Positions 3,364-18,161 of a stretch of DNA of 64,000 nt are shown in pieces. Location of the stretch: contig CAWFAD010000016.1 in the NCBI GenBank assembly GCA_963813815.1, forward strand, positions 352,001 through 416,000, read 5' to 3'. A program made the position numbers and the translations under genes. The first letter of the stretch is position 1. Each line of letters starts with the position of its first letter. The notes below the pieces were generated by a model. That model ran no database searches. It worked only from the letters and a program-made list of their open reading frames with translations, and had not been told where the DNA came from. The stretch is from an uncultured bacterium. Lineage in GTDB: Bacteria; Krumholzibacteriota; Krumholzibacteriia; Krumholzibacteriales; Krumholzibacteriaceae.

Positions 3364-4632
3364 ATGGAACTGAAAGCCGAAACCAAGTACAGGCTCCTCG
3401 CTCGAATCTCCCATGAGCTCCGAGACACGCTGGACCTGGACGAGATACTGAATCATCTCCTGGATATGGTTCGTTCGGTCGTGGAGTACGACGCCGCGGG
3501 CATTTTTGTGCTGAACGAGGATTTCATGGAGCCGCACGAGAGGAAGGCGCGCGGGTTGATCGGCGGCATCGCGATTCGCGGATTCGACATACGACCCCCG
3601 AGCATCGATCCTATGCTGAGCGCCGGCAAGGGTATCGTCGGGCATGTGATCGGAACGCGCGAATGCGTCGTGATTTCCGACGTGCGCAACGATTCTCGCT
3701 ACATCGAGGGCCGTAAGGGGACGCGCTCGGAGATCGCCGTGCCCATCGTGAGGAATGAGCGGGCGATCGGTGCGTTGAATCTCGAAAGCAACACGGTGGC
3801 GGCCTATAGCCCCGGCAATCTCGAGATGCTGCAATTCGTCGCCGATGCAGCCGCGCTCGCCATCGAAAAAGCCATGCTGCACCGGCAAATTCTGGAGAAG
3901 GAGCGCATAGAGGAACAGCTGAAGGTCGCGCACGAGGTTCAATCCCGCCTTCTCCCGCGCGAGGCTCCGGACGTGCCCGGGTACGACATCAGCGGCACAT
4001 GCATTTCGACGTACGAGATCGGGGGAGACTACTTCGATTATCTTCGGCTTCCGAACGACAGGATCGGCGTCGTCGTGGCGGATGTGTCGGGGCATGGAAT
4101 CCCCGCGGCGCTGATCATGACGGCTTTTCGCGCGCTCCTGCGCACGCAGATCCGCGCCGATGCGGAGCCGGAGCATGTCGCCAGCTCGCTCGGCGGGCTG
4201 CTCCCGGAATTTATCGGGGATGAACACTATGTGACATCTGTGTACGGGGTTCTCGATCCGCCGGAGGGTCGCTTCACGTATGTCAACTGCGGGCACGTCG
4301 TTCCCCTGCTTTTTCGATCCGACGGCCGCGTCGAACATTTGAGAATCGGGGGGCCGGTCCTGAGCGGCGCCCTCACGGACACGTCGCATCATGCCCATGA
4401 GGTCGAACTCGCACGAGGAGACACGCTGATTCTCTATACCGACGGCGTCGTCGAGATCGGGCCCGAGAACGGAGAGGAATTCGGTCTGGAGCGATTGAAA
4501 ACGGTCGTGCAGGGAGCGCGGGAGCTCCCGGCTTCGGGCATAATTCGCGAGCTCGTTCGTGCGACGCGGGAGTTTTCCGGTTCGGAGCATTATCGCGATG
4601 ATTTCACTCTCGTGATCGTGCGACGAGGGTAG
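3364..4632 (+). CDS. GAF + SpoIIE/PP2C phosphatase (RsbU-like)
   Basis: GAF motifs RSEIAVPI and IGALNLES; PP2C motifs IGGDYFD, VADVSGHG, YTDGVVE and DDFTLV. Confidence 0.9.
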   Translation: MELKAETKYRLLARISHELRDTLDLDEILNHLLDMVRSVVEYDAAGIFVLNEDFMEPHERKARGLIGGIAIRGFDIRPPSIDPMLSAGKGIVGHVIGTRECVVISDVRNDSRYIEGRKGTRSEIAVPIVRNERAIGALNLESNTVAAYSPGNLEMLQFVADAAALAIEKAMLHRQILEKERIEEQLKVAHEVQSRLLPREAPDVPGYDISGTCISTYEIGGDYFDYLRLPNDRIGVVVADVSGHGIPAALIMTAFRALLRTQIRADAEPEHVASSLGGLLPEFIGDEHYVTSVYGVLDPPEGRFTYVNCGHVVPLLFRSDGRVEHLRIGGPVLSGALTDTSHHAHEVELARGDTLILYTDGVVEIGPENGEEFGLERLKTVVQGARELPASGIIRELVRATREFSGSEHYRDDFTLVIVRRG

Positions 4633-4729
4633 ATGCCCGTCGTGTCGCTTCTCGTTGACTCTCGAGAAAAGCAACCACTATACTCCCCTCGCTTCTCCGG
4701 TGAACGGGAAACGGAACGAAGGGAAGGTT

Positions 4730-5617
4730 ATGAAAACGAATCTCGTGCTGGTCTCCACGCTCGTCATCCTGCTGCTTTCGTGCGCCGCTCCGCCCGCGGG
4801 GGCGCTGGAAATCGTGTCCAAGAGCCCGTACGCGGGCGCCATCGTCGTCGACGCCGCAACGGGAAGAGCGCTGTTCGAGGACGACGCGGACGTGCGGGCG
4901 TACCCGGCCAGCATCACGAAGCTCATGGTGCTCCTCGTCATTCTCGATGCGGTCGAAGCCGGCCGCCTCACCCTCGACGCGCCGGTCAAGGTGACCGCCC
5001 AGGCCTCCAAGATCGGCGGAACGCAGGTGTATTTGAAGGAAAACGAAGTGTTCCCGGTCGAGGAGCTGCTGTACGCGCTCATTGTCGAGTCGGCGAACGA
5101 CGCGGCGACCGCGCTCGCGATCCATTACGCCGGCAACAAAGCTGCTTTCGTGGACCTGATGAACAGGCGCGCGCAGGAAATCGGCATGAAAGACACGGTC
5201 TATCACTCCGCGCACGGCCTGCCTCCGAGCAAAGGCCAGCTGCCGGATGTTTCCACTCCGCGCGATATCGCGAAGCTGTGCTGCGAGCTTCTGAAGAAGC
5301 CCGGCGTCTTGAAGTATACCTCCACCCGGCGGCGCCCCTTCAGGGCGGATTTGGCCGAGCCGTTCATGATGACGAACCACAATCGGCTGCTCGGAAGGCT
5401 CGAGGGGTGCGACGGGCTCAAGACCGGGTATTTCAGGGCGGCGGGATTTTCCATCGCGGCGACCGCGGCCAGAAAGAATAAACGAGCCATCGCCGTCGTG
5501 GTCGGGGCGACGAACGAGAGAGTCAGGGATGTCCGGACAAAGGAGCTCCTCGCCAAGGGGCTGGAGGAGCTCGCGGCCGCCTCGCCGTCGACGGCCCCGG
5601 CCGGGGCATCTCGGTGA
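4730..5617 (+). CDS. dacA: D-alanyl-D-alanine carboxypeptidase (peptidase S11)
   Basis: PASITKLM (SxxK), SANDAA (SxN) and LKTG motifs; signal peptide. Confidence 0.9.
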   Translation: MKTNLVLVSTLVILLLSCAAPPAGALEIVSKSPYAGAIVVDAATGRALFEDDADVRAYPASITKLMVLLVILDAVEAGRLTLDAPVKVTAQASKIGGTQVYLKENEVFPVEELLYALIVESANDAATALAIHYAGNKAAFVDLMNRRAQEIGMKDTVYHSAHGLPPSKGQLPDVSTPRDIAKLCCELLKKPGVLKYTSTRRRPFRADLAEPFMMTNHNRLLGRLEGCDGLKTGYFRAAGFSIAATAARKNKRAIAVVVGATNERVRDVRTKELLAKGLEELAAASPSTAPAGASR

Positions 5618-5631
5618 AAAGGAGCGGGACC

Positions 5632-5994
5632 ATGCGCAGCAGAATCGTTGTTTCGTTGGCGGCGGCGGTTTGCCTCGCCGCGTCGAACGCGTTCGCCGGG
5701 CGCATCTTCGGCGACATCAAGCTCGACGGCAAGCCGGCGCCGGCCGGCATCGCGGTGAAGATCGCCGTGGCGCCGACCGCGGGGGCCGCGACGACGCCGG
5801 TCGTCGTCGACTCCGCGGTCACCGACAAGTTCGGCTCGTACAAGCTGGCGGTGAAGCAGGAGGGGAAGTGCGTTCTGACGCTCGTGTACGAGAAGCAGGC
5901 GGTAACGCTCGAGGTCTTTTCCTACAAGAGCGCGACGCGCTACGACCTCATCCTCGAAAAAAAGGGTGGGAAGGCGACCCTGAGAAGGAAGTGA
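5632..5994 (+). CDS. Small secreted beta-sandwich-like hypothetical protein
   Basis: AGGAG SD; signal peptide ending AFA; TDKFGSYKL segment. Confidence 0.6.
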   Translation: MRSRIVVSLAAAVCLAASNAFAGRIFGDIKLDGKPAPAGIAVKIAVAPTAGAATTPVVVDSAVTDKFGSYKLAVKQEGKCVLTLVYEKQAVTLEVFSYKSATRYDLILEKKGGKATLRRK

Positions 5995-6001
5995 TCGAAA
6001 G

Positions 6002-6901
6002 ATGAGCGTCGAACCCGTACAAAAACGGGACGCGTGGAACAAGATCGAGATCCTCACGCGCCCGCTCGGCGGTCTGCTCACCGCGGCGGCCATCACCGTG
6101 CTCGGTTTCATCACCTCGAGCGCCCTCAATCAGCGGCAGGCGATCGACACGAACACGCGCCTCTACACGGAGCTCATGAGCCGCCGCGAGGAATCGGAAA
6201 GCGCGCTCCGCAAGGATATGTGCGTTTCCATCATCAATTCCTTCGTGAACCCGCGCGACACGGGGCTCGGTCCCTCCGTGCTCAACCTCGAGATGCTCGC
6301 CTACAACTTTCACGAGTCGCTCAACCTGAAGCCGCTGTTCGAGGAAATGCGGCGGCGGGTGATGCACGCGCGGGGAGAGGCGGCGACGCTCGAGGACCGG
6401 GCGGAAAACGACGCCTACCTTGAGAGGCTCGAGACCATGGCGCGGGAGATCGTGCGCAGGCAGATGATCGTTCTCGAGGGAGTCGGTAAGAGGTTCGATC
6501 GCACGATCGATCTCTCCGGCGATCCGGAGGGAGCGAGCCTCGAGCCCGAGACGCTGACGCTCGACGGCGTCGCGACGACCTTCGCGATCGACGTTCTCGG
6601 CGTCGACCGGGAGACCCGCGAGATAGAAATCGGCCTCAGCATCGAGAGCCCGGACCCCGAGCAGGGGCGCCAGACGAAGGTGGCGGCCTTCGGCGTCAGC
6701 TACTTCGATTTCCCCATGATCGACAACACGAGGCTCGTCGGCGGCCAGCGTTGCTCGGTGGTGCTGAACAGCATCTCGGAGCATTCCGCCGACATCACGC
6801 TCGTGCTTTTTCCCGGCACCTACGCGAGCCTCAAGGAAAAGCCTTACTACAACGAGGTGATCGAGAGCGTTCTCAAAGCGAACAAGAGGATGGCCCGCTG
6901 A
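6002..6901 (+). CDS. Membrane-anchored hypothetical protein
   Basis: N-terminal TM helix; 7 bp from the upstream stop; typical codon usage. Confidence 0.65.
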   Translation: MSVEPVQKRDAWNKIEILTRPLGGLLTAAAITVLGFITSSALNQRQAIDTNTRLYTELMSRREESESALRKDMCVSIINSFVNPRDTGLGPSVLNLEMLAYNFHESLNLKPLFEEMRRRVMHARGEAATLEDRAENDAYLERLETMAREIVRRQMIVLEGVGKRFDRTIDLSGDPEGASLEPETLTLDGVATTFAIDVLGVDRETREIEIGLSIESPDPEQGRQTKVAAFGVSYFDFPMIDNTRLVGGQRCSVVLNSISEHSADITLVLFPGTYASLKEKPYYNEVIESVLKANKRMAR

Positions 6902-6982
6902 GCGCCAGCCGATCGATGAGAGGGCGGCGCAACCCCGCAACCGCATTTACCGGGCGGGTGCGCCGCAGAAACGAGGTCTCGT

Positions 6983-7714
6983 ATGAAGAAGCTGCTCATG
7001 GCCGCGATCGTCGCGGCCGCCGTAATCGTCGTCATCGTTCTCGTCGGCCTCTCCAAGCTCGACTCACTCGTCGCGAAAATGATCGAGAAATACGGCGGCG
7101 ACGCGACGCAGACGGAAGTCCGCGTCGCGGGGGTGGATATCTCTCTCCGCGATGGGCGAGGCTCGATCAAGGGGCTCGAGATCGAGAGCCCCGAGGGGTT
7201 CGGGGCTCGCACGGCTCTTTCGCTGGGCGACATCGTCGTCGACATCGACGTCAAGAGCATCCGCGAGGAGCCCATCGTCATCGACGAGATTCGCGTGCGG
7301 GCTCCCGTCGTCAGCGCCGAGATAACGAAGACGGGCTCTTCCAACATCGACGAGCTCCGCAAGCGGGTGCAGGCCTACGCCGCGGGGACGGGGGGAGAGG
7401 GCGGCGAATCGAGAGGCGAAACGAAGCGGATACGGATCGCGCGATTCGTATTCGAGGAAGGCCGCATCGAGGTCGACGCGTCGGCGCTCGGGATCGAGAA
7501 GCGCACGATCGTTCTCCCCGAGATCCGTCTCGACGACGTCGGCGGAGCGAGCGGCGCGCCGCCGGACGAGATCGCGAGGATCATACTCACGACCGTTGCC
7601 GGCAAAGCGACCTCCGAGATCGCCGACTCCGAAATCGACCGGCTGATCAAGGAGAAGCTCGGAGGGTCCGTCACCGACAAGGTGAAAGACCTGATGGACA
7701 AGGTCGGTCTGTAG
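6983..7714 (+). CDS. AsmA-like / DUF748-like N-anchored protein
   Basis: N-terminal TM helix; GRGSIKGLEIESPEGF and IVIDEIRVRAPVV beta-rich pattern. Confidence 0.6.
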   Translation: MKKLLMAAIVAAAVIVVIVLVGLSKLDSLVAKMIEKYGGDATQTEVRVAGVDISLRDGRGSIKGLEIESPEGFGARTALSLGDIVVDIDVKSIREEPIVIDEIRVRAPVVSAEITKTGSSNIDELRKRVQAYAAGTGGEGGESRGETKRIRIARFVFEEGRIEVDASALGIEKRTIVLPEIRLDDVGGASGAPPDEIARIILTTVAGKATSEIADSEIDRLIKEKLGGSVTDKVKDLMDKVGL

Positions 7715-7769
7715 CCGCGCGGCCGAGCTCTCCTCCGCGGCGCCGCGGGCGAACCGGCGGCTCGCGCTT

Positions 7770-8801
7770 CTATTCCACCTTCCCGAGCGGCATGACGTAG
7801 AGCGGCTCCTCCGCGCGCGTCATCCCGACGGCCTTCTTGAGCCGCAGATCGTCGAACGCGCCGAGGGCGCACGTGCCGACCTTGAGAGCGTACGCCTCGA
7901 GGTACACGTTCTCCGCGGAATGCCCGAGATCCATGCAGACGTAACGATCGCGCCCGCGCTGGCCGTACTTCACCATCGTCCGCTCGTACACGGCCGAGTA
8001 TACGATCGCCGCCGAGGCCGTCTTGAAATGGGGCTGGTCGAAGCAGGCCTTGCTCACCTCGTCGCGCCGGTCTCCCTCGGCGACGCGCACGAGCCGATGC
8101 GTCTCCGACTTGTAGTAGTAGATGCCGTCCGGAAGGCCGGTCACGTCGAAGGCCGCGAGGTAGATGTCGAGCGGGTAGCGGCCTCCGGCCGAGGGCGCCG
8201 TCCGCAGACCCCCTCGAAGGAAGGCGGGCGGGTTCTCGCGCGTTTTCGTGATTCCGTAGGCCGCCCAGAGGAGCTGGGAGGTCTCCTCGAGCGCGAGGGG
8301 CTTCTCGACGTAGGAGCGGATCGATCTGCGGTTCGCGAGGGCCGCCTCGATCGATACCGTTCCGTCGAGGCGCGGGGCGGGGAGGTCGATCGCGGGGCCG
8401 TCCGGGTGGGTCTCCGGGAATGATCTCTCCACGAACGCGATCTTCTGCTGGATCGAGTCCATGACGGCCTTCCATTGGCTTCCGCTCCGAAGGCTCTCGA
8501 GATCCGCGTCCGCCGCGAGCGTCTCCTTTTCGAGGAATCCCGCCTCGATCGCCTTGAAGAGATATCCGTAGGCGGCCTCCGGCTTGCCGACCCGGGCGCC
8601 GGCGCAGGCGGCGTTGTAGAAATCGTTGTAGCTCCACTCGCCCGTTTCGAAGGCCCTTTCGTAGAGGGCGAGGGCGTTCTCGTATTCCTTGGCCATGAGC
8701 TTCGACTCGGCCTCCCGGACGAGGGCGTCGTATCCCTGCGCCAGTGAGGCGGAGGCGAGCCCCAGAAATACGACAGCCGCCATCGCAACGCGCATTCTCA
8801 T
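7770..8801 (-). CDS. Signal peptide + TPR-like + SagB/ThcOx-type nitroreductase-family protein
   Basis: GGAGG SD; YNAACAGAR TPR-like part; RRSIRSY, LRTAPSAGGRYP and GHSAENVYL...GAFDD motifs. Confidence 0.85.
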   Translation of the reverse strand: MRMRVAMAAVVFLGLASASLAQGYDALVREAESKLMAKEYENALALYERAFETGEWSYNDFYNAACAGARVGKPEAAYGYLFKAIEAGFLEKETLAADADLESLRSGSQWKAVMDSIQQKIAFVERSFPETHPDGPAIDLPAPRLDGTVSIEAALANRRSIRSYVEKPLALEETSQLLWAAYGITKTRENPPAFLRGGLRTAPSAGGRYPLDIYLAAFDVTGLPDGIYYYKSETHRLVRVAEGDRRDEVSKACFDQPHFKTASAAIVYSAVYERTMVKYGQRGRDRYVCMDLGHSAENVYLEAYALKVGTCALGAFDDLRLKKAVGMTRAEEPLYVMPLGKVE

Positions 8802-8844
8802 GTCGATACCTCCCGTTCGCGATCGCCGTGCTTTCTCCTTGGGA

Positions 8845-8873
8845 TTTACATTATACGCGCATTCGAGTAGAAT
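8845..8873 (+). promoter_or_regulatory. sigma70-type promoter, probably giving a leaderless mRNA for the radical SAM gene
   Basis: TTTACA-N17-TAGAAT ends 6 nt before GTG 8880. An overlapping minus-strand TATAAT (8850-8855) faces the SagB-type gene. Confidence 0.5.
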
Positions 8874-8879
8874 CGGCCA

Positions 8880-10262
8880 GTGGAGAGAAAATCTCGTTTC
8901 AAGCATGACGGCGTGCTGCACGCCACCATAAACGGCCACCGGTTCCACCTTCGGCGCAAGGACCCGACACGCGACGACTTTCTCTGGATCGACGGCCGGC
9001 AGCCGCCGATCGTTCTCGATCGGACTGCGGCTGATTTCGTTTCTCATCTCATCGACGCGATGTGGCTCCATCAGCGGGGCAACGGAGACCAGTCGCAAGC
9101 GGTGATCGACTACGTCGTGGAAAAGATGGCCGGGCGCTACTCGCGGGGGCCGCGCCTTTTCGGGCGCGCCGTCGCGCGCGAGACGATCGCCGCCGACCTG
9201 AACAGAATCTTCGGCACGCTGATGAGACTCGCGGAAGGGACGTGTCCCGCGGAAGCGGGGCTCGGTTCGAAGGAGATACGATACGGGAAGTGGCTCGCGC
9301 CCGCCCGCATGGATCTCGCCGTGACCTACCGGTGCAACCTGAAATGCGGGAAATGCTACGTCGGCGACCGGCGCGTCGAGCGGGAGCTCGGCACGCGGGA
9401 ATGGGTCTGCGTCTACGAGACGCTCTGGAAGTCGGGCGTGCCGCAGGTCGTTTTCACCGGCGGGGAGCCGACGCTGCGGGACGATATCGTAGAGCTCGTG
9501 AGCGAGGCCGACGAGTTCGTCACCGGTCTCGTCACGAACGGCACGAGGCTCCGCGAGCTCTCCGAGGCCCTGCGCGACGCGAGCCTCGACTACGCGCAGG
9601 TCACGGTCGAGTCGTTCGACGCCGGGATTCACGACCGGATCGTCCACGCGGACGGATCGCACGCGAAGACCGTGGCCGGCATCGAACGGGCCCTCGCCGC
9701 GGGCCTCGAGATCGTGACCAATACCACGCTCACCCGCGCCAACGCCGCCTCGTTCGTCGAGACCGTGAGATGGCTGCACGGCCTCGGCATCAGGAACGTC
9801 GCCTGCAACACGCTCATCTGCAGCGGTCACGGGGTGGAATACCGGAGAGAGAACGGGCTCGACGAGAAGTCGCTCGGGGGGCTGCTCGCCGCCGCCCGCC
9901 GGACGGCGGAGGATCTGGGGATCGCGTTTCAGTGGTATTCCCCGACGTGCTATCACGGCGGCGTCGATCCGGTCGCGCTCGGCCTCGGCGTCAAAACCTG
10001 CTCGGCGGCGGCGCACAACATGACGATTCAGCCGGACGGCACGGTGCTCCCCTGCCAGTCGTGGCCCGACGCCGTGGGGAATATTCTGAAGGACGAGTGG
10101 GGCTCGATCTGGCGGCATCCGGTCTGCGTGAAGCTGCGCGAACGGCGAATGACGCCTGCGGAGTGCCGCGGGTGCGAGCACGAGATCTCGTGCGGCGGCG
10201 GGTGTCCCCTCGACGCGTCTCCGCGAATCAAGAGCGCGGGGGAAAAGGGGGCGATCGCGTGA
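8880..10262 (+). CDS. Radical SAM/SPASM protein with putative N-terminal PqqD-like RRE
   Basis: CNLKCGKC, FTGGEPTL and VTNG motifs; SPASM CSAA...IQPDGTVLPC...CRGC...CGGGC; about 140-aa N-terminal extension. Confidence 0.9.
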   Translation: MERKSRFKHDGVLHATINGHRFHLRRKDPTRDDFLWIDGRQPPIVLDRTAADFVSHLIDAMWLHQRGNGDQSQAVIDYVVEKMAGRYSRGPRLFGRAVARETIAADLNRIFGTLMRLAEGTCPAEAGLGSKEIRYGKWLAPARMDLAVTYRCNLKCGKCYVGDRRVERELGTREWVCVYETLWKSGVPQVVFTGGEPTLRDDIVELVSEADEFVTGLVTNGTRLRELSEALRDASLDYAQVTVESFDAGIHDRIVHADGSHAKTVAGIERALAAGLEIVTNTTLTRANAASFVETVRWLHGLGIRNVACNTLICSGHGVEYRRENGLDEKSLGGLLAAARRTAEDLGIAFQWYSPTCYHGGVDPVALGLGVKTCSAAAHNMTIQPDGTVLPCQSWPDAVGNILKDEWGSIWRHPVCVKLRERRMTPAECRGCEHEISCGGGCPLDASPRIKSAGEKGAIA

Positions 10263-11221
10263 AACGAATGCTGCCCCTCTTTCTCCTTGTCTGCCTCACG
10301 TCGATGGCCGGCGGATCGCTCGCCGGGGACACCGGGACCTACCGGATACTGAGCTACCGGGTCGCCTTGACTCCCCGCTCCGACGGCACGGTCGCGATCG
10401 ACTACTATCAAAAATGGCTCGTCACCGGCGGTCACATCCCCTGGATCACCGTGGGGACCGCCAACGACGATTTCGAGATAACGAGCCGCGGCGGCGCCGC
10501 GCTGGCGGTCGCGCCTGCCGGTCAGGGGGGCTGGAGCGGCGCGCGGCTCGATCTCGACGCGGACTATCGAGAGGGACGGACCTTCGAGGTTTCGTTCTCG
10601 ATCGCTCAGAGGCGGCTGTTCTACGCCGACAAGGACGGCTACCGGCTCGACTTCACGCCCGGCTGGTATGATCGCGCCGCCGTCGAAACGCTTCTCGTGA
10701 GCGTGAGATTCTTCGCCGACCCGGCGACGGTCGTCGTGGAGCCGCCGGCGTCGCGCGTTTCGGGCGATACGATGGAATGGGTCCGGCACGGTCTCGGAGC
10801 GGGAGAACGGTTCAACGTTCACGTATCCATACCTCGCGCGGCATTCCCGGCCGGCATCGCCGCGGGCGAGCTTCGGGGAGGCGCCGGCGGGAAGAGCTCC
10901 GGTTCGGGCGGTCTCGTCGCCTTCGTGATCGTCGTGCTCGTCATTCTTATCATCGTCGTCGTCCTGCGCTCGAGGGGAGGCCCTTACTCCGGCGGAAGAA
11001 TATTTTACGGAGGAATGCCGGGCGGGCGTTCGAGCGGCGGCAGGTCCGGGGGCGGCCGATCGAGCGGCGGAGGGGGCGGATTCGGCGGAGCGTCGATGTC
11101 CTGCGCGTGCGCGTGCGTGAGCTGCGCCTGCGCTTGCGCGTGCGCCGGCGGGGGCGGGGCCGGGTGCGCCAGAAAATCGGAGCACTCGTGCCCGCTCTGC
11201 GGGAAGGAGAGGACACCGTGA
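10259..11221 (+). CDS. Membrane protein (DUF2207-like ectodomain, TM, Gly-rich linker, Cys-rich tail)
   Basis: GTG overlaps the rSAM stop; signal peptide; TM LVAFVIVVLVILIIVVVL; tail SCACACVSCACACACAGGGGAGCARKSEHSCPLC. Confidence 0.8.
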   Translation: MKRMLPLFLLVCLTSMAGGSLAGDTGTYRILSYRVALTPRSDGTVAIDYYQKWLVTGGHIPWITVGTANDDFEITSRGGAALAVAPAGQGGWSGARLDLDADYREGRTFEVSFSIAQRRLFYADKDGYRLDFTPGWYDRAAVETLLVSVRFFADPATVVVEPPASRVSGDTMEWVRHGLGAGERFNVHVSIPRAAFPAGIAAGELRGGAGGKSSGSGGLVAFVIVVLVILIIVVVLRSRGGPYSGGRIFYGGMPGGRSSGGRSGGGRSSGGGGGFGGASMSCACACVSCACACACAGGGGAGCARKSEHSCPLCGKERTP

Positions 11222-11760
11222 AGAGGATCGCCCGCTGCCTTTTCATCCTCGCGACGCTCGCCGCCTGCGAGGGCGGTGCGGATCGATACGACAAAAACGT
11301 CGCGGTTCCGAGGGGAGACCCTGCGTTTCCTCCGCTCGGCGCGTCGTGGGTGATCGACCGGGCCGGGGTCCTGTCGGAGCCCGTGATCGCGGCGAACGAC
11401 GCGATCTGCGAGAAGCTCAAGGCGGACGGCGTCGCCGAGGTCGTCGTGGTGATCGTGAACGGCGTCAAGCAGCCGGAGGATTGGGCCACGCATTACGGGC
11501 GATGGCTCGGTCTCGGGAGCAAGGGCCTCAGCGCCGATGGGGGGAACCGGGGGCTCGTGTGGCTCGTTCGGCCCGACGCGGAGGAAAAGCTGACCGTGTC
11601 CGTGGGGCGGGGGCTTCCCCGGTTCACGACGGTCGACTACGGCGGCATCATGGATGACGCCGTCGAGTATTTCAATTTCGGCAACTTCGACGGGGGCGTC
11701 GCGACGCTCGTCGCCCGAACGGACGAGGTCCTGCGAAGGATAAGCGTCGAAGGGAAGTAG
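11218..11760 (+). CDS. TPM-domain lipoprotein
   Basis: Lipobox LAAC; WVIDRAGVLS, EVVVVIV, NRGLVWLV and VSVGRGL motifs; GTGA overlap with the upstream gene. Confidence 0.75.
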   Translation: MKRIARCLFILATLAACEGGADRYDKNVAVPRGDPAFPPLGASWVIDRAGVLSEPVIAANDAICEKLKADGVAEVVVVIVNGVKQPEDWATHYGRWLGLGSKGLSADGGNRGLVWLVRPDAEEKLTVSVGRGLPRFTTVDYGGIMDDAVEYFNFGNFDGGVATLVARTDEVLRRISVEGK

Positions 11761-11778
11761 AGGAGAAAGGAGCCTCAC

Positions 11779-12402
11779 GTGAAAAAGTCCGCCGCGGGGA
11801 TCGCCGTGCTGATCGTCGTCATAGGCATCGTCGCCTTCTCTCTCGTGTCGTCGGGAGTCGGCGTCTGGAACAAGCTCAATCAGAAATTCCAGATGGTGGA
11901 GGGAGGCAAATCGCATTACTCGGCGGCCCTCAACACCTGCACGGAAAAGATCAAGGGCGTCTGGGAGATGGCCATTCAGTACATGGAGCATGAATCGGAA
12001 ACGTATCGCGCAGTGGCCGAAGCGCGCAGCGGCTACGACGCGGCGAGGGATGCGTTCGAGCAGGCGTCGGCGGAGGTCGGCGACACCGAAGCGCTCACGA
12101 AGGCGGGCTCGGAGGTTGTGAGAGCGGCCATGGCCTTCAGGATCCAGGTCGAGGCGTATCCTCAGCTTCGGGCCGCCGAGACGTCGCAGGAGAACATGCG
12201 CAACCTCGAGTCGTCGGTGAACGAGATCAAGACCGCGCTCGACGACTGGGTGGTCACGATCCGTGAGTACAATACCTATCGCGGCTCGGCATGGCCGTCC
12301 ATGCTCGGAGGTTTCATGAAGAAGTTTCCGCCGCGGATCGAGTACTACGAGGGCGAGATCGAAAAGCTCGATATCGACGATCTCAACCCCGCGAAGGGGT
12401 AA
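11779..12402 (+). CDS. lemA: LemA family protein
   Basis: N-terminal TM helix; YMEHESET, VEAYPQLRA and YNTYRGSAWPS motifs. Confidence 0.85.
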   Translation: MKKSAAGIAVLIVVIGIVAFSLVSSGVGVWNKLNQKFQMVEGGKSHYSAALNTCTEKIKGVWEMAIQYMEHESETYRAVAEARSGYDAARDAFEQASAEVGDTEALTKAGSEVVRAAMAFRIQVEAYPQLRAAETSQENMRNLESSVNEIKTALDDWVVTIREYNTYRGSAWPSMLGGFMKKFPPRIEYYEGEIEKLDIDDLNPAKG

Positions 12403-12567
12403 TGGGGAGCCATCGAAAGCGGTAGATCCTCGTCCCGGTCGCCTCAACCGGGGAAAATTGGCCGATTCGTCGCTCCGTGGGGCGAACTACTCATGAGTCT
12501 ATTTAATGACATATTTATTTATCGTATTATTTTGCAGCAAGTTATGTAACGTCCTTAAAGCCAAGTC

Positions 12568-12597
12568 TTGACAACGCCCGGGCAGATAAGGTATAAT
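12568..12597 (+). promoter_or_regulatory. Consensus sigma70 promoter
   Basis: TTGACA-N18-TATAAT in an AT-rich intergenic region. Confidence 0.75.
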
Positions 12598-12655
12598 AGG
12601 TTCTATAAATAAGCGGCTCGCGCATTCACTGCAACCTAAGAGGGGAAGGAAAAAT

Positions 12656-13345
12656 ATGCGCAAAATGCTCTTCGCGTTCCTATCCGTTATTCTCTTGCCG
12701 GCGCTCCTCGCGGCCGAGCCCGTGAGCGGCGTATTCAACTCCACCGATCTCGGCGGGCAGTTCCTGACCGGCCGCTACTCGAACTGGCGTCCCAAAAGCA
12801 CGCAGGGCACGCCGCGCGTGCTTCACATGCAGTCATGGGACGGCGCGGCTCTCGGCACTCAGTGGGACATCACGTGCCCGCTCTCTGCGACGGATTTTGC
12901 GACGGTGGACAACCGCGTGGGCGGCGTCGGCACGGTCGTCTACACGCTCAACATGAGCGGCGGAACCTTTACGTTGGCCGCCGGCGGTTGGCCGTGGGGA
13001 GACGGTTTGGGAACGCTCGGTGTCACGGTCTTTAGAACGACCGAGACCTATGCTCTCGTCAGCGGCACAGCCACGTTGATCTCGACTGTCAACAGCGGGA
13101 ACACGTACGGATCGTTCGTCAACGACTGCGCGCTCGAGCTCTCGTGGACCGGAGGCATACAGGTCAACGAGACGCCGTACGCCACGAAGCCGACGACGTA
13201 TCCTTCGTTCATCGGGAGCACCTGCGCTGCGGCGACGGCGCTCTACGGCGAATGGGGAGGCATCACCGCTATGACCCTCTTGATCGACTGCCCCATCGCG
13301 ACCGATGAATCCACCTGGGGAGCGATCAAGCAGCTCTATCGGTAA
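12656..13345 (+). CDS. Secreted protein of unknown function with C-terminal STWGAIKQLYR motif
   Basis: Signal peptide; Gly/Thr-rich beta-type body; paralog at 61234-61941. Confidence 0.8.
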   Translation: MRKMLFAFLSVILLPALLAAEPVSGVFNSTDLGGQFLTGRYSNWRPKSTQGTPRVLHMQSWDGAALGTQWDITCPLSATDFATVDNRVGGVGTVVYTLNMSGGTFTLAAGGWPWGDGLGTLGVTVFRTTETYALVSGTATLISTVNSGNTYGSFVNDCALELSWTGGIQVNETPYATKPTTYPSFIGSTCAAATALYGEWGGITAMTLLIDCPIATDESTWGAIKQLYR

Positions 13346-13374
13346 GCTTCGACGATTCGATTCGGGAAATCTCC

Positions 13375-13412
13375 AAGGGGGGCGAGCTCAAAAGGCCGCC
13401 CCCTTCTTCTTT
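13375..13412 (+). terminator. Probable intrinsic terminator
   Basis: AAGGGGGGCG...CGCCCCCTT hairpin followed by a pyrimidine/T run. Confidence 0.5.
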
Positions 13413-13472
13413 GATCGCGCCGCCGTTTTGATTGCCCCGCCGCCGCCGCCCGCATGCTGTATAATCCGATCG

Positions 13473-16025
13473 ATGCGAACGACGCTCGAGAGCTATCTCG
13501 ACGATTTTCTCTCGCGCGGCGACGAAACGGCCCTGGCGCGTCGCCGCGGGCTGCGGACCATTCGCACGTCCTACGGAGGGCTCGCGCGCGGTGCCTTTCG
13601 ATTCTCGCGCGAGCTCGAGGAGCGAGGCGTCGGCAGGGGCGATCGAGTTGTCCTTCAGGGGGAAAACGGCGCCGGCTGGGTCGCCGTGTTTCTCGGCTGC
13701 CTCGTTCGCGGGGCGATCGTCGTGCCGCTCGACGCTCGGAGCGAGCCGGGATTCGCGGCCCGGGTCGCGCGCCGGGTCGAGCCGAAGCTCGCCGTGATCG
13801 ATTCCGCCGCGGGGGGCGCCGGAGCGTTCGGCTGCCCGGCGGTGCCGCTCGGGGATCTGGAGGACCTCCTCTCGCGCCATCCGGCCGAACCGCGCCCCGC
13901 CGCGCTCATCGATCCGGACGACGCCCTCGAGATCGTCTTTACCTCCGGCACGACGGCCGAGCCGAGGGGCGTGCTCGTCACCCGCCGCAACCTGCTCGCG
14001 AATCTCGGGGCGCTCGAGCGGGAGATCATTCCGTACCTCAAGTACGAGTGGCTCGTCCATCCGATGCGGTTTCTGAACCTCGTGCCCCTGAGCCACGTGT
14101 TCGGGCAGATCATGGGCATGTTCGTGCCGCAGATGCTGGGAGGAGAGGTGTTCTTCCAGGAATCCCTCGGCCCCTCGCGCGTCATCGAGACGATCGAGCG
14201 GGAGCGGATATCGGTTCTCGTCGCCGTGCCGAGGATGCTCGATTCGCTCCGCGAGACGATCACCCGCGACCTCGAGGCGCGGGGCGCGATCGAAGGGTTC
14301 CACCGCTCGTTCGAAGGCGAGCGGGGACGCCATCCCCTTCGGCGCTGGTGGAGGTTTCGCGCGATCCATTCGCGATTCGGATGGAGGTTTTGGGCCTTCA
14401 TCTCAGGGGGCGCCTCGCTCTCGCCGGAAACGGAGGAGTTCTGGGACCGGCTCGGATTCGCCGTCATTCAGGGCTACGGCATGACCGAGACCGCCTCCCT
14501 CGTCAGCGTCAATCATCCCCTGAGGCTCGTCCGCGGATCGATCGGCAAGGCGATGCCCGGCACCTCGGTACGGCTCGCGGCGGACGGGGAGATACTGGTT
14601 CGCGGCGAGAGCGTCACTCCGGGATACTGGAAGGACGCGTCCGGCGCCGAGTCGTCGCCCGACGGGTGGTTTCACACCGGCGACATCGGGGAGATGGACG
14701 CGGAAGGAAATCTCTATTTCAAGGGACGCGCGAAAGAGGTCATCGTCACCGCCGCGGGGATGAAGATCCATCCGGGGGACATCGAGCGGGCGTTCGATCG
14801 CGAGCCCGAGGTCAGGGCGTCCGCCGTCATAGCCGCCGCGGGGGCCGGCGGGCCGGAGCCGCTCGCCGTGCTCGCTCTTCGCCGGAAGGCCGATGCGAAG
14901 GCCCTCGTCGACCGCGTCAACCGATCGCTCGCGCCGTACCAGCGCGTTCGCCGCTGGTTCGTCTGGCCGGAAGACGATCTCCCGCGCACGCCGACGCAGA
15001 AGGTCATGAAGCGGCTCGTCGCCGAGAAAGCGCTCGCCGGGGAGGCGATCGGCGCCGGGCGCGGGGAAGCCCTTGATGTCGCCCCCGGGATCGACTCGAT
15101 CGTCTCGCGGCTCGGCGGCGGAGCGGGACGGGCGAACGATCCATCCGCGAGGCTCGGAGCCGACCTCGGCCTCGATTCGCTCGGCCGGGTCGAGCTTCTC
15201 GACGCCGTCGAGGAGCAATACCGGATCGATCTCGACGAGGCGGCGCTCACGGAGGAAACGACGCTCGGCGATCTCGAGCGGCTCGTGCGGGGCGGAAGCG
15301 GTGGGCGGGAGTCGCCGTATCCGTATCCGCGGTGGCAGCGGAGGCCCCCCCTGAGTTGGCTCGGACTCGCGATGCTCGAGCTCCTCGCCATGCCGGCGGC
15401 GAGGCTCCTCGGACGGCCGCGAACGAGCGGCGGAGAGTTCGCGAAGAATATTCGCGGTCCGTTCGTCATCGTCTGCAACCACGTCACGGCGGTCGATCAC
15501 GCGTTCGTGCTTCTGGCCCTCCCGCGGAGGATGCGGAGGCGCACGGCGATCGCCATGGACGGAGAGATACTGCGCGAGAGGCGGCATCCGCCCCCGGGAA
15601 CGCCGATGCTCGCGCGCGTTTCCCTCGCGATCCAGTACGCTCTCGTCGTTCTGTGCTTCAACGTGTTTTCGATGCCGCGGCGGAGCGGCTTCCGGAAGAG
15701 CTTCGAGTTCGCCGGAGGGCTCCTCGATCGCGGATACAATCTGCTCGTGTTTCCGGAGGGGCGCCACACGGAGGACGGAGCGATCGGCCCCTTCATGCCG
15801 GGGACGGGCCTCCTCGTTTCGAGGCTCGACGCGCCGGTGATTCCCCTGCGGCTCGACGGACTGTGGGAGCTCAAGAAGGCGCGTAGGCGCCGGGCGCGGC
15901 CGGGAGAGATTTCGATCGTCATCGGGGAGCCGGTGCGGTATTCGCCGAATGATCGTCCCGAGCGGATCGCCGCCGATCTCGGCGCGCGCGTGAGGGGTCT
16001 CGGGCGCGGTCCGTCCGGGCAATAA
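13473..16025 (+). CDS. Fatty acyl-AMP/CoA ligase + ACP + PlsC acyltransferase fusion
   Basis: FTSGTTAEPRG, QGYGMTET and WFHTGDIG; LGLDSL phosphopantetheine site; NHVTAVD and FPEG motifs. Confidence 0.9.
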   Translation: MRTTLESYLDDFLSRGDETALARRRGLRTIRTSYGGLARGAFRFSRELEERGVGRGDRVVLQGENGAGWVAVFLGCLVRGAIVVPLDARSEPGFAARVARRVEPKLAVIDSAAGGAGAFGCPAVPLGDLEDLLSRHPAEPRPAALIDPDDALEIVFTSGTTAEPRGVLVTRRNLLANLGALEREIIPYLKYEWLVHPMRFLNLVPLSHVFGQIMGMFVPQMLGGEVFFQESLGPSRVIETIERERISVLVAVPRMLDSLRETITRDLEARGAIEGFHRSFEGERGRHPLRRWWRFRAIHSRFGWRFWAFISGGASLSPETEEFWDRLGFAVIQGYGMTETASLVSVNHPLRLVRGSIGKAMPGTSVRLAADGEILVRGESVTPGYWKDASGAESSPDGWFHTGDIGEMDAEGNLYFKGRAKEVIVTAAGMKIHPGDIERAFDREPEVRASAVIAAAGAGGPEPLAVLALRRKADAKALVDRVNRSLAPYQRVRRWFVWPEDDLPRTPTQKVMKRLVAEKALAGEAIGAGRGEALDVAPGIDSIVSRLGGGAGRANDPSARLGADLGLDSLGRVELLDAVEEQYRIDLDEAALTEETTLGDLERLVRGGSGGRESPYPYPRWQRRPPLSWLGLAMLELLAMPAARLLGRPRTSGGEFAKNIRGPFVIVCNHVTAVDHAFVLLALPRRMRRRTAIAMDGEILRERRHPPPGTPMLARVSLAIQYALVVLCFNVFSMPRRSGFRKSFEFAGGLLDRGYNLLVFPEGRHTEDGAIGPFMPGTGLLVSRLDAPVIPLRLDGLWELKKARRRRARPGEISIVIGEPVRYSPNDRPERIAADLGARVRGLGRGPSGQ

Positions 16026-16108
16026 ATCCGCAGGAAAGGTCCGGGCGATGATATATATTAAGGATTGAACGAGTCGGGAATCCGTTGAAACGAGCAGGGG
16101 AGGTTCAC

Positions 16109-16879
16109 ATGAAACGCTTCGCATATTTCGTCGCCGGTCTCGCGATCCTCGCGATGCCCGCGGTCGCGGCGTGTCAGAAGGCGGAGGAGAAGACTCCGAC
16201 CCCGGATGCGTCGGCCGCGGCCGCGCACGAATTCACGCAGGCGGAGATAACCGCGTCGGTTCCCGAGCTGAGGGATCTGCACGAGGTCGTCTACCCGCTC
16301 TGGCACAGCGCGTATCCGGACAAGGATTTCGCGATGATCAAGGAGCTTCTTCCGCAGATGGACACCCTGACCGCGCGGCTCGACGCCGCCCCGCTGCCGG
16401 GGATCCTGCGCGAGAAGCAGGCGGCGTGGGACGAGAAGAAGACGAACCTGAAATCGACGCTCCAACAGCTCCACGCGGCGGCGTCGAAAGACGATCAGTC
16501 CGAGATGCTGAAGCAGGTCGAGGCGTTCCACGCCGTCTACGAGCAGCTCGTGCGGACGATCCGTCCTCTCGTCAAGGAGCTCGACGCCTATCATCAGGAG
16601 CTCTACAAGCTCTACCACTACTACGCGCCCGCGTACGACATCGAGAAGATCCGCTCCGCGGCCGCCGCCATGGCGGAAAAGATTCCGGCCCTCAAGGCGG
16701 CGGCGCTTCCGAAGCGGCTCGCCGACCGGCAGGCGGATTTCACGGCGGCCGTCGCGGCGCTCGAGACGTCGACGCTCGAGCTCGTCGAGATCGCCAAGGG
16801 GGACGCCAAGGAGAAGATTCTCGAAGCGGTGGAAAAGGTCCACGCCGCTTATCAGGGCGCCGAGCGCATGTTCGACTAG
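16109..16879 (+). CDS. Helical His-containing lipoprotein with internal duplication
   Basis: GGAGG SD; lipobox VAAC; repeats ELRDLHEVVYPLWH / ELDAYHQELYKLYH and VEAFHAVY / VEKVHAAY. Confidence 0.7.
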   Translation: MKRFAYFVAGLAILAMPAVAACQKAEEKTPTPDASAAAAHEFTQAEITASVPELRDLHEVVYPLWHSAYPDKDFAMIKELLPQMDTLTARLDAAPLPGILREKQAAWDEKKTNLKSTLQQLHAAASKDDQSEMLKQVEAFHAVYEQLVRTIRPLVKELDAYHQELYKLYHYYAPAYDIEKIRSAAAAMAEKIPALKAAALPKRLADRQADFTAAVAALETSTLELVEIAKGDAKEKILEAVEKVHAAYQGAERMFD

Positions 16880-16898
16880 GGAGCCCGGGAGCCGCGCC

Positions 16899-18161
16899 AT
16901 GATCCGGTTTGCTACGCTGCACGACGTGATCGTCATAGGAGGCGGCGCCTCGGGGATGTTCGCGGCGGGACGCGCGGCCGAAAACGGCTCGCGCGTTCTG
17001 CTGCTCGAACGAAACGACCGCCTCGGGAGGAAGCTCGCCATCACCGGCAAGGGCCGGTGCAACCTGACCAACACCGACGAGACGGCCGCGTTCATAGAAA
17101 ATTTCGGCCGCAACGGCAAGTTTCTCTACCGCGCGTTCACGGAGTTCTCGAACCGCGATCTCGTGGCGTTTTTCGACTCGCGCGGCGTTCCCACGAAGGA
17201 AGAGCGGGGCGGACGGATATTCCCGGCGAGCGAGAGCTCCGCGAGCGTCGTGAGAGCGCTGGCCGGGTACGTGAAAGAGAGCGGGGTGTCCGTCCGGTTC
17301 AACTCCCGCGTGGAGCGGATCGTCGTCGATCCCGTCTCCGGCTCCGTGGCGGGCGTGCACGAGGCCGGCCGCGCGGGGACGATCGCCGCGAAGAAAGTCA
17401 TACTCGCGACGGGCGGGCTTTCCTATCCCGCCACGGGCTCGACGGGCGACGGCTACGCGATGGCCGAGGCGCTCGGCCACACGATCGTGCCGCCTCGCCC
17501 CGCGCTCGTTCCCCTCGAAACGGTGGAGCGGTTTCCGAAAGAGCTCGCGGGGCTGTCCCTCGAGAACGTCAGGGCGACGGCCCTCGGCGACGGCGCCAAA
17601 ATAGCCGACGAGTTCGGCGACATGCTCTTCACTCATTTCGGCGTATCGGGTCCCATTATTCTCAGGCTGAGCGGCGCTGTCGTCGAGCGTCACGCGAGGA
17701 AAGAGCGGGTCGAGATCTCGATCGACCTCAAGCCCGCGCTCGACCGAAACAAGCTCGAGAACCGGCTCGTCCGCGAGCTCTCGAGCTCAGGCGCCAAAGC
17801 GCTTCGAACGGTCATGAAGGAGCTGCTTCCGCGCGCGCTCATTCCGGCCTTCGTCGAATCGAGCGGAATTCCCGGCGACAAGAAATGCAGCCAGATAACG
17901 GGGGCCGAGAGGAGAAAGCTCGTCGACGCGTTCAAGGATTTCCGTTTGACGGTGCGCCGGCCGAGACCCGTCGCGGAGGCCATCGTCACGCGCGGCGGAA
18001 TCGATCTCAGGGAGATCGATCCGCGGACGATGGAGTCGAAGAAGGTGAAGGGGCTCTATTTCTGCGGAGAGATCATCGACATCGACGGAACCACCGGCGG
18101 GTACAACCTGCAGGCGGCCTTTTCGACCGCTCATCTCGCGGCGCTCCGCCGCGCGGAATGA
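16899..18161 (+). CDS. HI0933/YhiN (BaiN-like) flavoprotein
   Basis: IGGGASG, GRKLAITGKGRCNLTN, LFTHFGVSGP and GGYNLQAAF motifs. Confidence 0.92.
   Translation: MIRFATLHDVIVIGGGASGMFAAGRAAENGSRVLLLERNDRLGRKLAITGKGRCNLTNTDETAAFIENFGRNGKFLYRAFTEFSNRDLVAFFDSRGVPTKEERGGRIFPASESSASVVRALAGYVKESGVSVRFNSRVERIVVDPVSGSVAGVHEAGRAGTIAAKKVILATGGLSYPATGSTGDGYAMAEALGHTIVPPRPALVPLETVERFPKELAGLSLENVRATALGDGAKIADEFGDMLFTHFGVSGPIILRLSGAVVERHARKERVEISIDLKPALDRNKLENRLVRELSSSGAKALRTVMKELLPRALIPAFVESSGIPGDKKCSQITGAERRKLVDAFKDFRLTVRRPRPVAEAIVTRGGIDLREIDPRTMESKKVKGLYFCGEIIDIDGTTGGYNLQAAFSTAHLAALRRAE

Follow-up and report, generated by a model that had tools for sequence, protein, structure and literature searches.

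We analyzed a 64,000-nucleotide stretch from an uncultured bacterium of the family Krumholzibacteriaceae (contig CAWFAD010000016.1, positions 352,001 to 416,000; this whole stretch is referred to as the window), and specifically a cassette of four plus-strand genes at 8880..12402, whose reading frames encode a radical SAM/SPASM enzyme, a membrane protein with a Cys-Ala tail, a TPM-domain lipoprotein and a LemA-family protein. The interpretation that we regard as probable is that the enzyme, which has an N-terminal domain resembling the recognition elements (RREs) of ribosomally synthesized and post-translationally modified peptide (RiPP) systems, docks on the putatively cytoplasmic tail of the DUF2207-like membrane protein and modifies its Cys-Ala core in place, most likely by forming thioethers. 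What the analysis shows directly is the gene anatomy, a tail motif under purifying selection, an RRE-like fold of the enzyme N-terminus, and an adjacency of the two genes that is near-obligate in both directions.

The enzyme and its tailed membrane partner

The enzyme (P0001, 460 amino acids) is encoded by the first gene of the cassette (8880..10262, plus strand), and its homologs share the same start position. The radical SAM core (residues 148-299; 9321..9776) was identified by Pfam (PF04055, 80.7 bits versus a cut-off of 29.5, E = 1.8e-22), and the cysteines of its CX3CX2C motif (C152-x3-C156-x2-C159) are invariant in 34 of 34 aligned sequences, which places the protein in the radical SAM superfamily. 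The SPASM domain (residues 374-433; 9999..10178) was found in the same way (PF13186, 37.8 bits versus 21.5, E = 2.3e-9), with a Cys motif that continues to C442 and in which C374-x12-G387-x4-C392 and C429-x2-C432-x5-C438-x3-C442 are invariant in the alignment. Both domains, and the conserved extension of ~140 amino acids that precedes the radical SAM core, had been recognized in the original prediction, which was made from the sequence alone. The final Cys of the seven-Cys SPASM motif (CX9-15GX4C...CX2CX5CX3C...C) is missing, there being no Cys beyond C442; C357 is invariant and C416 nearly invariant in the enzyme alignment, and one of them might stand in for it. The closest solved sequences are PqqE (2.9e-22), SkfB (1.2e-21) and SuiB (6.5e-16), and a Foldseek comparison of the whole enzyme gave SkfB as the best match (4.5e-9), followed by SuiB and CteB; anSME ranks below the RiPP maturases in structure comparisons of the whole protein. 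All 69 NCBIfam matches are far under their cut-offs (107 bits versus 525 for the best, 84 versus 625 for StsB).

The second gene (10259..11221, plus strand) encodes a single-pass membrane protein of 320 amino acids (P0002), and its GTG start overlaps the stop codon of the enzyme gene. As originally described, GTGA start/stop overlaps join the first three genes; they were read directly at 10259-10262 and 11218-11221, which implies translational coupling of these genes. The protein comprises, in order, a signal-like N-terminus, an ectodomain of ~190 amino acids (approximately residues 24-215; 10328..10903), one hydrophobic span read from the sequence (approximately residues 217-236; 10907..10966), a linker of Arg, Gly and Ser, and the tail SCACACVSCACACACAGGGGAGCARKSEHSCPLC, in which 10 of the 34 residues are Cys (33 residues from the first Cys to the last, the length that the original prediction had given). 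In the alignments, the Cys-Ala core extends from C282 to C303 (CACACVSCACACACAGGGGAGC) and is followed by K306, H309 and C311-x2-C314 (11102..11200 in total). Between the span and the core lies the juxtamembrane motif YSGGRIFYGG (residues 243-252; 10985..11014), a candidate recognition ("leader-like") segment judging by its conservation: in 27 sequences, Y243 and G246 never vary and G251 and G252 hardly do, and four proteins of a Clostridia branch of this family (L010, L011, L013 and L015) have a similar SYxRGRGFLxG after the span.

The span is followed by RSRGG...GGRSSGGRSGGGRSS, and by the positive-inside rule this Arg-rich segment would place the tail in the cytoplasm; the C-terminal tail would thus lie in the compartment expected of a radical SAM enzyme. 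In two homologs (P0246, 473 amino acids, and P0240, 498 amino acids), the tail protein runs in frame into a second hydrophobic segment and a TPM domain. From their sequences these are natural fusions, or cases of a lost stop codon, of genes 2 and 3, and such a fusion fits a topology with the tail in the cytoplasm and the TPM domain in the periplasm. Another protein (P0335, 602 amino acids) joins the N-terminal part of the radical SAM enzyme to the tail protein. In three proteins of the Clostridia branch (P0258, P0350 and P0371), a long cytoplasmic region separates the span from the tail and carries a CPxCG...CxYCG zinc-ribbon-like motif and a conserved ...PNxFVRVNV... segment, both of which may be extra recognition elements.

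The membrane protein has 744 homologs at E<=1e-3, no Pfam match, and 0 NCBIfam families at E<=0.1. A feature search nevertheless returned DUF2207 proteins as 23 of 30 matches, and alignment of the ectodomain to nine canonical DUF2207 proteins of the same phylum gave an hhalign probability of 95.4% (E = 2e-8, 191 columns). The Pfam hidden Markov model of DUF2207 (PF09972) matched neither P0002, including in the search of this genome, nor five members of the Clostridia branch. These comparisons indicate that the ectodomain is a remote DUF2207 homolog, below the curated membership threshold. Canonical DUF2207 proteins have about 580-630 amino acids and end in plain Gly/Ser runs; P0002 looks like a shortened relative whose glycine tail has gained the Cys-Ala core.

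Conservation of the Cys-Ala core and its linkage to the enzyme

Across phyla, the tail core (CACAC[VA]xCACACACAGGxxAGC) shows hardly any variation. Among the 120 homologs listed, 119 have at least seven Cys in the last 60 residues, and exactly 10 are present in 113; the 120th (P0240, one of the fusions) ends in its TPM domain. The Cys count holds even where ectodomain identity is down to about 50%. When 28 tails from both branches were aligned, the invariant columns were CA...CACACACAGG(G)xAGCxxK. The HxCPxC motif is confined to the branch of the window, and in the large Clostridia branch the tail ends in ...CACACACAGGGRAGCSxKDFY, without HxCPxC. We also compared 55 distinct DNA versions of the 22-codon core, in which the mean pairwise difference is 0.043 for codon positions 1 and 2 versus 0.538 for position 3. 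The synonymous sites vary freely, while the first two positions differ little; therefore, selection acts on the peptide and not on a DNA repeat. This free synonymous variation rules out a DNA-level explanation of the repeat, and together with the retention of Cys in homologs, it also rules out a chance low-complexity run. The Cys and most of the Ala and Gly positions are identical in 55 of 55 versions, the last four Ala included.

An alternative that we consider unlikely is that the tail is a metal or Fe-S element, metallothionein-like in its CxC and HxCPxC, and that the enzyme builds the cluster, loads it or trades electrons with it, or else uses the tail as a scaffold or metal-redox sensor, with no cross-linking. 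Ten Cys in 34 residues, their CxC spacing and the terminal HxCxxC would suit such an element. SPASM enzymes have auxiliary clusters, in CteB one such cluster is ligated by a Cys of the substrate, and with the last SPASM Cys missing beyond C442 an external ligand is conceivable. However, HxCPxC is missing throughout the Clostridia branch, which retains the enzyme; the Ala residues between the Cys, invariant in all 55 versions, are not needed by a pure metal site; and an RRE-type domain is typical of peptide-modifying enzymes. A motif that the enzyme recognizes, or that itself reacts, thus seems to account for the invariance of Ala better than a metal site of the generic CxC kind.

The distribution of the tail was assessed by a search with a tail-only profile against 1.84 billion representative proteins, which yielded 298 clusters (50% identity) at E<=0.001. 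Of the best 150 of these clusters, 143 contain the (CA)3+GG motif, mostly at the C-terminus of proteins of 300-420 amino acids. Judging by record names, the family occurs in Krumholzibacteriia, Latescibacterota, Zixibacteria, Aminicenantes/Acidobacteriota, Chitinivibrionia, Desulfobacterales, Patescibacteria, Dehalococcoidales, and gut or rumen Clostridia, including the cultured Butyrivibrio fibrisolvens. In the window itself, the tail of P0002 is the sole (CA)3+ run in all six frames.

Linkage of the tail to the enzyme was examined from both sides. The tail-anchored set consisted of 14 genome loci. It should be noted that CACACACA served as one of the two search patterns, which makes the presence of the tail in this set circular, but not the identity of its neighbors. 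A homolog of the radical SAM enzyme is directly adjacent in 14 of 14 loci, including those from distant Clostridia and Dehalococcoidales. The enzyme-anchored set consisted of 80 metagenome loci retrieved with PARMDLA[VIL]T and I[DE][AG]MWx[YFH]QxG, both of which are peptides of the enzyme only. Where at least 1100 nucleotides were available downstream, the tail-protein gene was present in 50 of 52 loci and the (CA)3+GG motif in 49 of 52. Among 201 genomes of the phylum, a strong match to the tail protein occurs in 16 and the N-terminal domain of the enzyme in 15; every one of these 15 also belongs to the 16 and has both genes on one contig, and 0 of 201 genomes have this domain without the tail gene. 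The remaining genome (G194) has the tail gene only, 876 nucleotides from the contig end, which is less than the ~1380-nucleotide enzyme gene and leaves no room for it. Two weak tail matches (E about 1e-4, residues 215-280) were discounted, because they cover the low-complexity linker. A survey of this co-occurrence had been named in the original prediction as a potential refutation, and the linkage proved to be near-exceptionless in both directions. The cassette itself is patchily distributed: 12 of the 14 genomes sampled from the window's genus have it, compared with 0 of 27 from other genera of the family, and it also occurs in three genomes of two other families.

The relatives from Clostridia and Dehalococcoidales have ectodomains only 27-35% identical, and they keep both the enzyme and CACACACAGGG[RA]AGC; the tail core is the sole strictly conserved part of the tail protein across branches. 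At one locus (L014), the gene order is reversed and the pair is retained. In the three loci of these lineages that were scanned with Pfam, the neighbors are a histidine kinase, an ABC/FtsX pair, a PEBP protein and a sulfatase, and neither TPM nor LemA stands beside the pair, which is also the case at L059. The latter locus (5193-7362) has two tandem tail genes after a single radical SAM gene. Since the pair persists without TPM and LemA and with the order reversed, the conserved, universal unit is a two-gene pair of the enzyme and the tailed protein. By contrast, TPM and LemA, each of which was found in 37 of 39 enzyme-anchored loci with at least 2400 nucleotides downstream, are accessories of the window's branch. 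Thus, of the four-gene system originally proposed, the pair of enzyme and tail is conserved, whereas the other two genes stand outside the universal core.

The same neighborhoods are informative as to whether the tail might be a true RiPP precursor core that is cut off once modified, yielding a small free Cys-rich product. Leader removal is the usual end of RRE-dependent radical SAM systems, and some metagenomic gene calls are short, tail-only fragments; most of these calls, however, start inside the membrane span or at contig ends, and the ectodomain, which is DUF2207-like, shows conservation of its own. The conserved neighbors of the pair include neither a protease nor an exporter, whether in the enzyme-anchored loci or in the three Clostridia and Dehalococcoidales loci; the only recurrent neighbors are TPM and LemA, which are dispensable. 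Given that neither kind of gene accompanies the pair, we rank release as the least likely explanation, and a very improbable one, and the proteolytic release that had been suggested at the outset finds no counterpart in these loci. The accompanying claim that a small precursor is lacking was borne out, in that no credible small Cys-rich precursor ORF (open reading frame) occurs within positions 4000-17000 of the window.

The putative recognition domain and the proposed modification

The N-terminal domain of the enzyme (residues 1-128; 8880..9263) is highly conserved, with 11 invariant residues (G11, H14, A15, T16, R21, H23, L24, W36, G39, C122 and P123). A whole-enzyme alignment with VIA-align was uninformative about this region, as the radical SAM barrel dominated the matches (viperin, BlsE, NifB); therefore, the domain was folded alone, from 32 sequences. 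The resulting model (predicted local distance difference test, pLDDT, 83.9) has four strands (12-17, 20-25, 33-37 and 44-46) and three helices (48-64, 72-87 and 100-118), to be compared with the RRE fold, a winged helix-turn-helix with a three-stranded sheet followed by three helices. We aligned the model, by VIA-align and independently of Foldseek, to 48,161 representative chains of the PDB. The three best chains are all RREs, although their Z scores lie below 8, where, by the tool's own caveat, a match may mean merely a common arrangement: the lasso-peptide B1 protein 6jx3_B (Z 7.6, root-mean-square deviation 2.6, 79 of 85 residues aligned), TbiB1 (5v1u, Z 7.5), and residues 1-79 of 5wgg_A, the RRE of the thioether-forming radical SAM/SPASM maturase CteB (Z 6.6). 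Both lasso B1 proteins are bound to leader peptides, with 6jx3_B containing its leader. PqqD (5sxy, Z 6.0) is at rank 9, and the RREs of MibB, TigE, MccB, PbtF, ThcOx and TbtB follow at lower ranks. The domain is homologous in the enzymes of the Clostridia branch (hhalign probability 89.9%, E = 1.7e-6, 104 columns). Its N-terminal placement is the same as that of the CteB RRE, which strengthens the assignment, and the structural comparisons give moderate support to residues 1-128 being an RRE-type winged helix. The PqqD-type RRE that had been predicted for this region is consistent with the fold, while Pfam and PDB sequence profiles provide no match for it. The lack of an RRE fold, which the original prediction had listed as a refuting outcome, was thus not what the structural comparison returned.

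In a further, quite unlikely alternative, the enzyme would act on some other substrate (a lipid, a small molecule, or another part or partner of the envelope module), the winged helix would only tether it to the membrane complex, and the tail would serve a separate end such as S-acylation, disulfide exchange or oligomerization. Winged helices are a common fold, and P0001 falls in no characterized equivalog, both of which would be compatible with such a role. On the other side, the tail protein is the only partner of the enzyme that is conserved in all branches, the core is the only strictly conserved part of that partner, and the nearest neighbors of the enzyme are peptide maturases.

Returning to modification of the tail in place, we infer that the enzyme binds the tail, that the tail is its substrate, and that both meet in the cytoplasm. 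In this scheme, the N-terminal domain would dock on the tail, most plausibly at the juxtamembrane YxxGRxF[YL]xG (YSGGRIFYGG here) or at GGGFGG. Next, the Cys-Ala core, (CA)n-GGGxAGC-xxK, would undergo modification in the radical SAM active site while still part of the membrane protein. The likeliest reaction would be the formation of intramolecular thioethers (sactionine or ranthionine type) from Cys sulfur to carbons of the invariant Ala or Gly; this chemistry is judged most likely because of the nearest characterized enzymes and the Cys-rich target, and the invariance of Ala would fit either reaction sites or recognition sites. An envelope module would thereby acquire a rigid, covalently cross-linked appendage in the cytoplasm; in the branch of the window, this module would also contain a periplasmic TPM lipoprotein and LemA.

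Several points weigh against this proposal. In addition to the middling Z scores (6.6-7.6) of the three best RREs, OmpR-type DNA-binding winged helices are interspersed in the VIA-align list at Z 5-6.6, and the five top Foldseek matches of the domain, although all are TbiB1, have E values of 0.065-0.17, with none stronger. Neither PqqD (PF05402) nor any other Pfam family matches residues 1-140 of P0001 at E<=0.1, and a search of PDB sequences with the domain profile returned no RRE at E<=10, the only match being an irrelevant aldehyde dehydrogenase (E = 1.6). The model of full-length P0001 is of moderate quality (pLDDT 71), with low confidence near the cluster-binding loops. As to chemistry, the acceptors available in the core are Ala, Gly, Val and Ser only, and the acceptor residues of characterized sactipeptides and ranthipeptides differ from these; a CxC-rich tail with HxCPxC could also be simply metal-binding. 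Finally, three of the 52 enzyme-anchored loci are exceptions to the linkage: L090 is without a tail gene within 4 kb, the tail gene of L094 is truncated, and L102 lacks an intact pair. At the last locus (1567-2685), an in-frame deletion has fused the enzyme, cut off near residue 263, with the final ~30 residues of the tail protein; either this copy has decayed, or the assembly is at fault.

A broader reading, which we put forward more tentatively and hold to be possible, is that the pair represents a widespread, undescribed class of modification, in which an RRE-bearing radical SAM/SPASM enzyme would turn the invariant, alternating Cys-Ala run of a DUF2207-like membrane protein into a membrane-tethered, covalently cross-linked ladder or a protein-derived cofactor.

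Accessory genes, surroundings and related systems

The third gene of the cassette (11218..11760, plus strand) encodes a TPM-domain protein of 180 amino acids with a lipobox-like LATLAAC, and its GTG start overlaps the stop codon of the tail gene. The fourth gene, which starts 18 nucleotides after the TPM stop codon (11779..12402, plus strand), encodes a divergent LemA-family protein of 207 amino acids with an N-terminal membrane span. Both assignments are above the Pfam gathering thresholds (TPM: PF04536, 51.9 bits versus 22.1; LemA: PF04011, about 54.6-54.8 bits versus 26.2), and purine-rich, Shine-Dalgarno-like stretches precede genes 2-4. A second, canonical LemA (213.7 bits) is encoded elsewhere in the same genome, outside the window (G000:C16:460251-460700, locus L108), and is followed by a membrane protein that, as its sequence reads, has an HExxH motif and resembles HtpX/M48 peptidases; the cassette LemA is a divergent paralog of this canonical LemA.

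In 4 of 10 canonical DUF2207 loci of the phylum, LemA lies just upstream of the DUF2207 gene. Within the family of the window, a canonical DUF2207 protein is encoded by 0 of 9 genomes from the window's genus versus 18 of 23 genomes of other genera, a pattern opposite to that of the cassette (12/14 versus 0/27). This is suggestive of a functional replacement of canonical DUF2207 by the cassette in this genus, although it is probably a single evolutionary event among kin.

Three further genes surround the cassette. The gene at 7770-8801 (minus strand) is divergent from the cassette and encodes a protein of 343 amino acids, with a signal-like N-terminus, a helical-repeat-like region and a Nitroreductase domain (PF00881, E = 2.9e-25); it was rejected as a member of the system, as its homologs occur near the cassette in only eight loci, all from close relatives. 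At 6983-7714 (plus strand), there is a gene for a protein of 243 amino acids that has a membrane span at its N-terminus and matches DUF748 in part (E = 1.6e-16). On the other side, 13305-16025 (plus strand) encodes 906 amino acids with AMP-binding, PP-binding and Acyltransferase domains, which looks like a fusion of acyl-activating, carrier and acyltransferase parts.

No curated family in Pfam or NCBIfam covers either protein of the pair. In literature searches, whose coverage lay largely outside subscription journals, we found no publication linking radical SAM enzymes with LemA and the TPM domain, or with DUF2207, and nothing relevant on a Cys-rich tail, an alternating cysteine or a Cys-Ala repeat of this kind; the tail motif was not found in print either, the string CACAGGGGAGC matching DNA primers only. 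The system would thus be an RRE-dependent radical SAM maturation of a new sort, aimed at a membrane-protein tail. Small secreted peptides are the known products of radical SAM/SPASM enzymes that carry recognition domains. In the present system, this machinery is apparently directed at the tail of a protein embedded in the membrane and comes without an apparatus for release, and the tail motif is among the most strictly conserved short sequences met in this analysis. If the tail is modified, it would be a new substrate class, with probably a new cross-link pattern. The proposal, if true, would offer the first chemical handle on the enigmatic LemA/DUF2207/TPM envelope modules and give them a chemically defined cytoplasmic output element.

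Four groups of systems invite comparison. The sactipeptide and ranthipeptide maturases (CteB/SCIFF, SkfB and AlbA-type) are alike in that a radical SAM core and a SPASM (or twitch) domain are preceded by an RRE-type winged helix at the N-terminus, and in that the gene for a Cys-rich target is adjacent. They differ in that the putative target here is the C-terminal tail of a 320-residue membrane protein and not a small leader-core peptide, that no protease or exporter is present and no NCBIfam equivalog is reached, and that the core is an alternating Cys-Ala run. QhpD and anSME are likewise radical SAM/SPASM enzymes; QhpD forms Cys-to-Asp/Glu thioethers in the protein QhpC, and anSME converts Cys or Ser into formylglycine. 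Both resemble the present enzyme in acting on protein Cys and not on small secreted peptides; unlike the membrane-anchored tail, their substrates are soluble exported proteins with other motifs.

The canonical LemA/DUF2207(/TPM) modules share with the cassette a homologous ectodomain, LemA and TPM neighbors, and a Gly-rich C-terminal tail; a pairing of LemA with DUF2207 is noted in PMC12631010. Unlike the long canonical proteins with their plain Gly/Ser ends, the protein of the window has a single span in 320 residues, a Cys-Ala insert and a dedicated radical SAM enzyme. The closest conceptual parallel to a tail as substrate comes from TIGR04222 membrane proteins, whose Cys-containing, Ser/Gly-rich C-terminal regions are proposed in PMC12452194 to be substrates of multinuclear non-heme iron-dependent oxidative enzymes (MNIOs). 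P0002 has no match to TIGR04222 in NCBIfam at E<=0.1. In both cases, a low-complexity, Cys-bearing tail of a membrane protein is genetically linked to an enzyme of RiPP type and is its proposed substrate; in the TIGR04222 case, however, the MNIO enzyme is not a radical SAM protein, the tails are predicted to be periplasmic, and they have no (CA)n motif, whereas the tail described here is a Cys-Ala run that would face the cytoplasm beside a radical SAM/SPASM enzyme.

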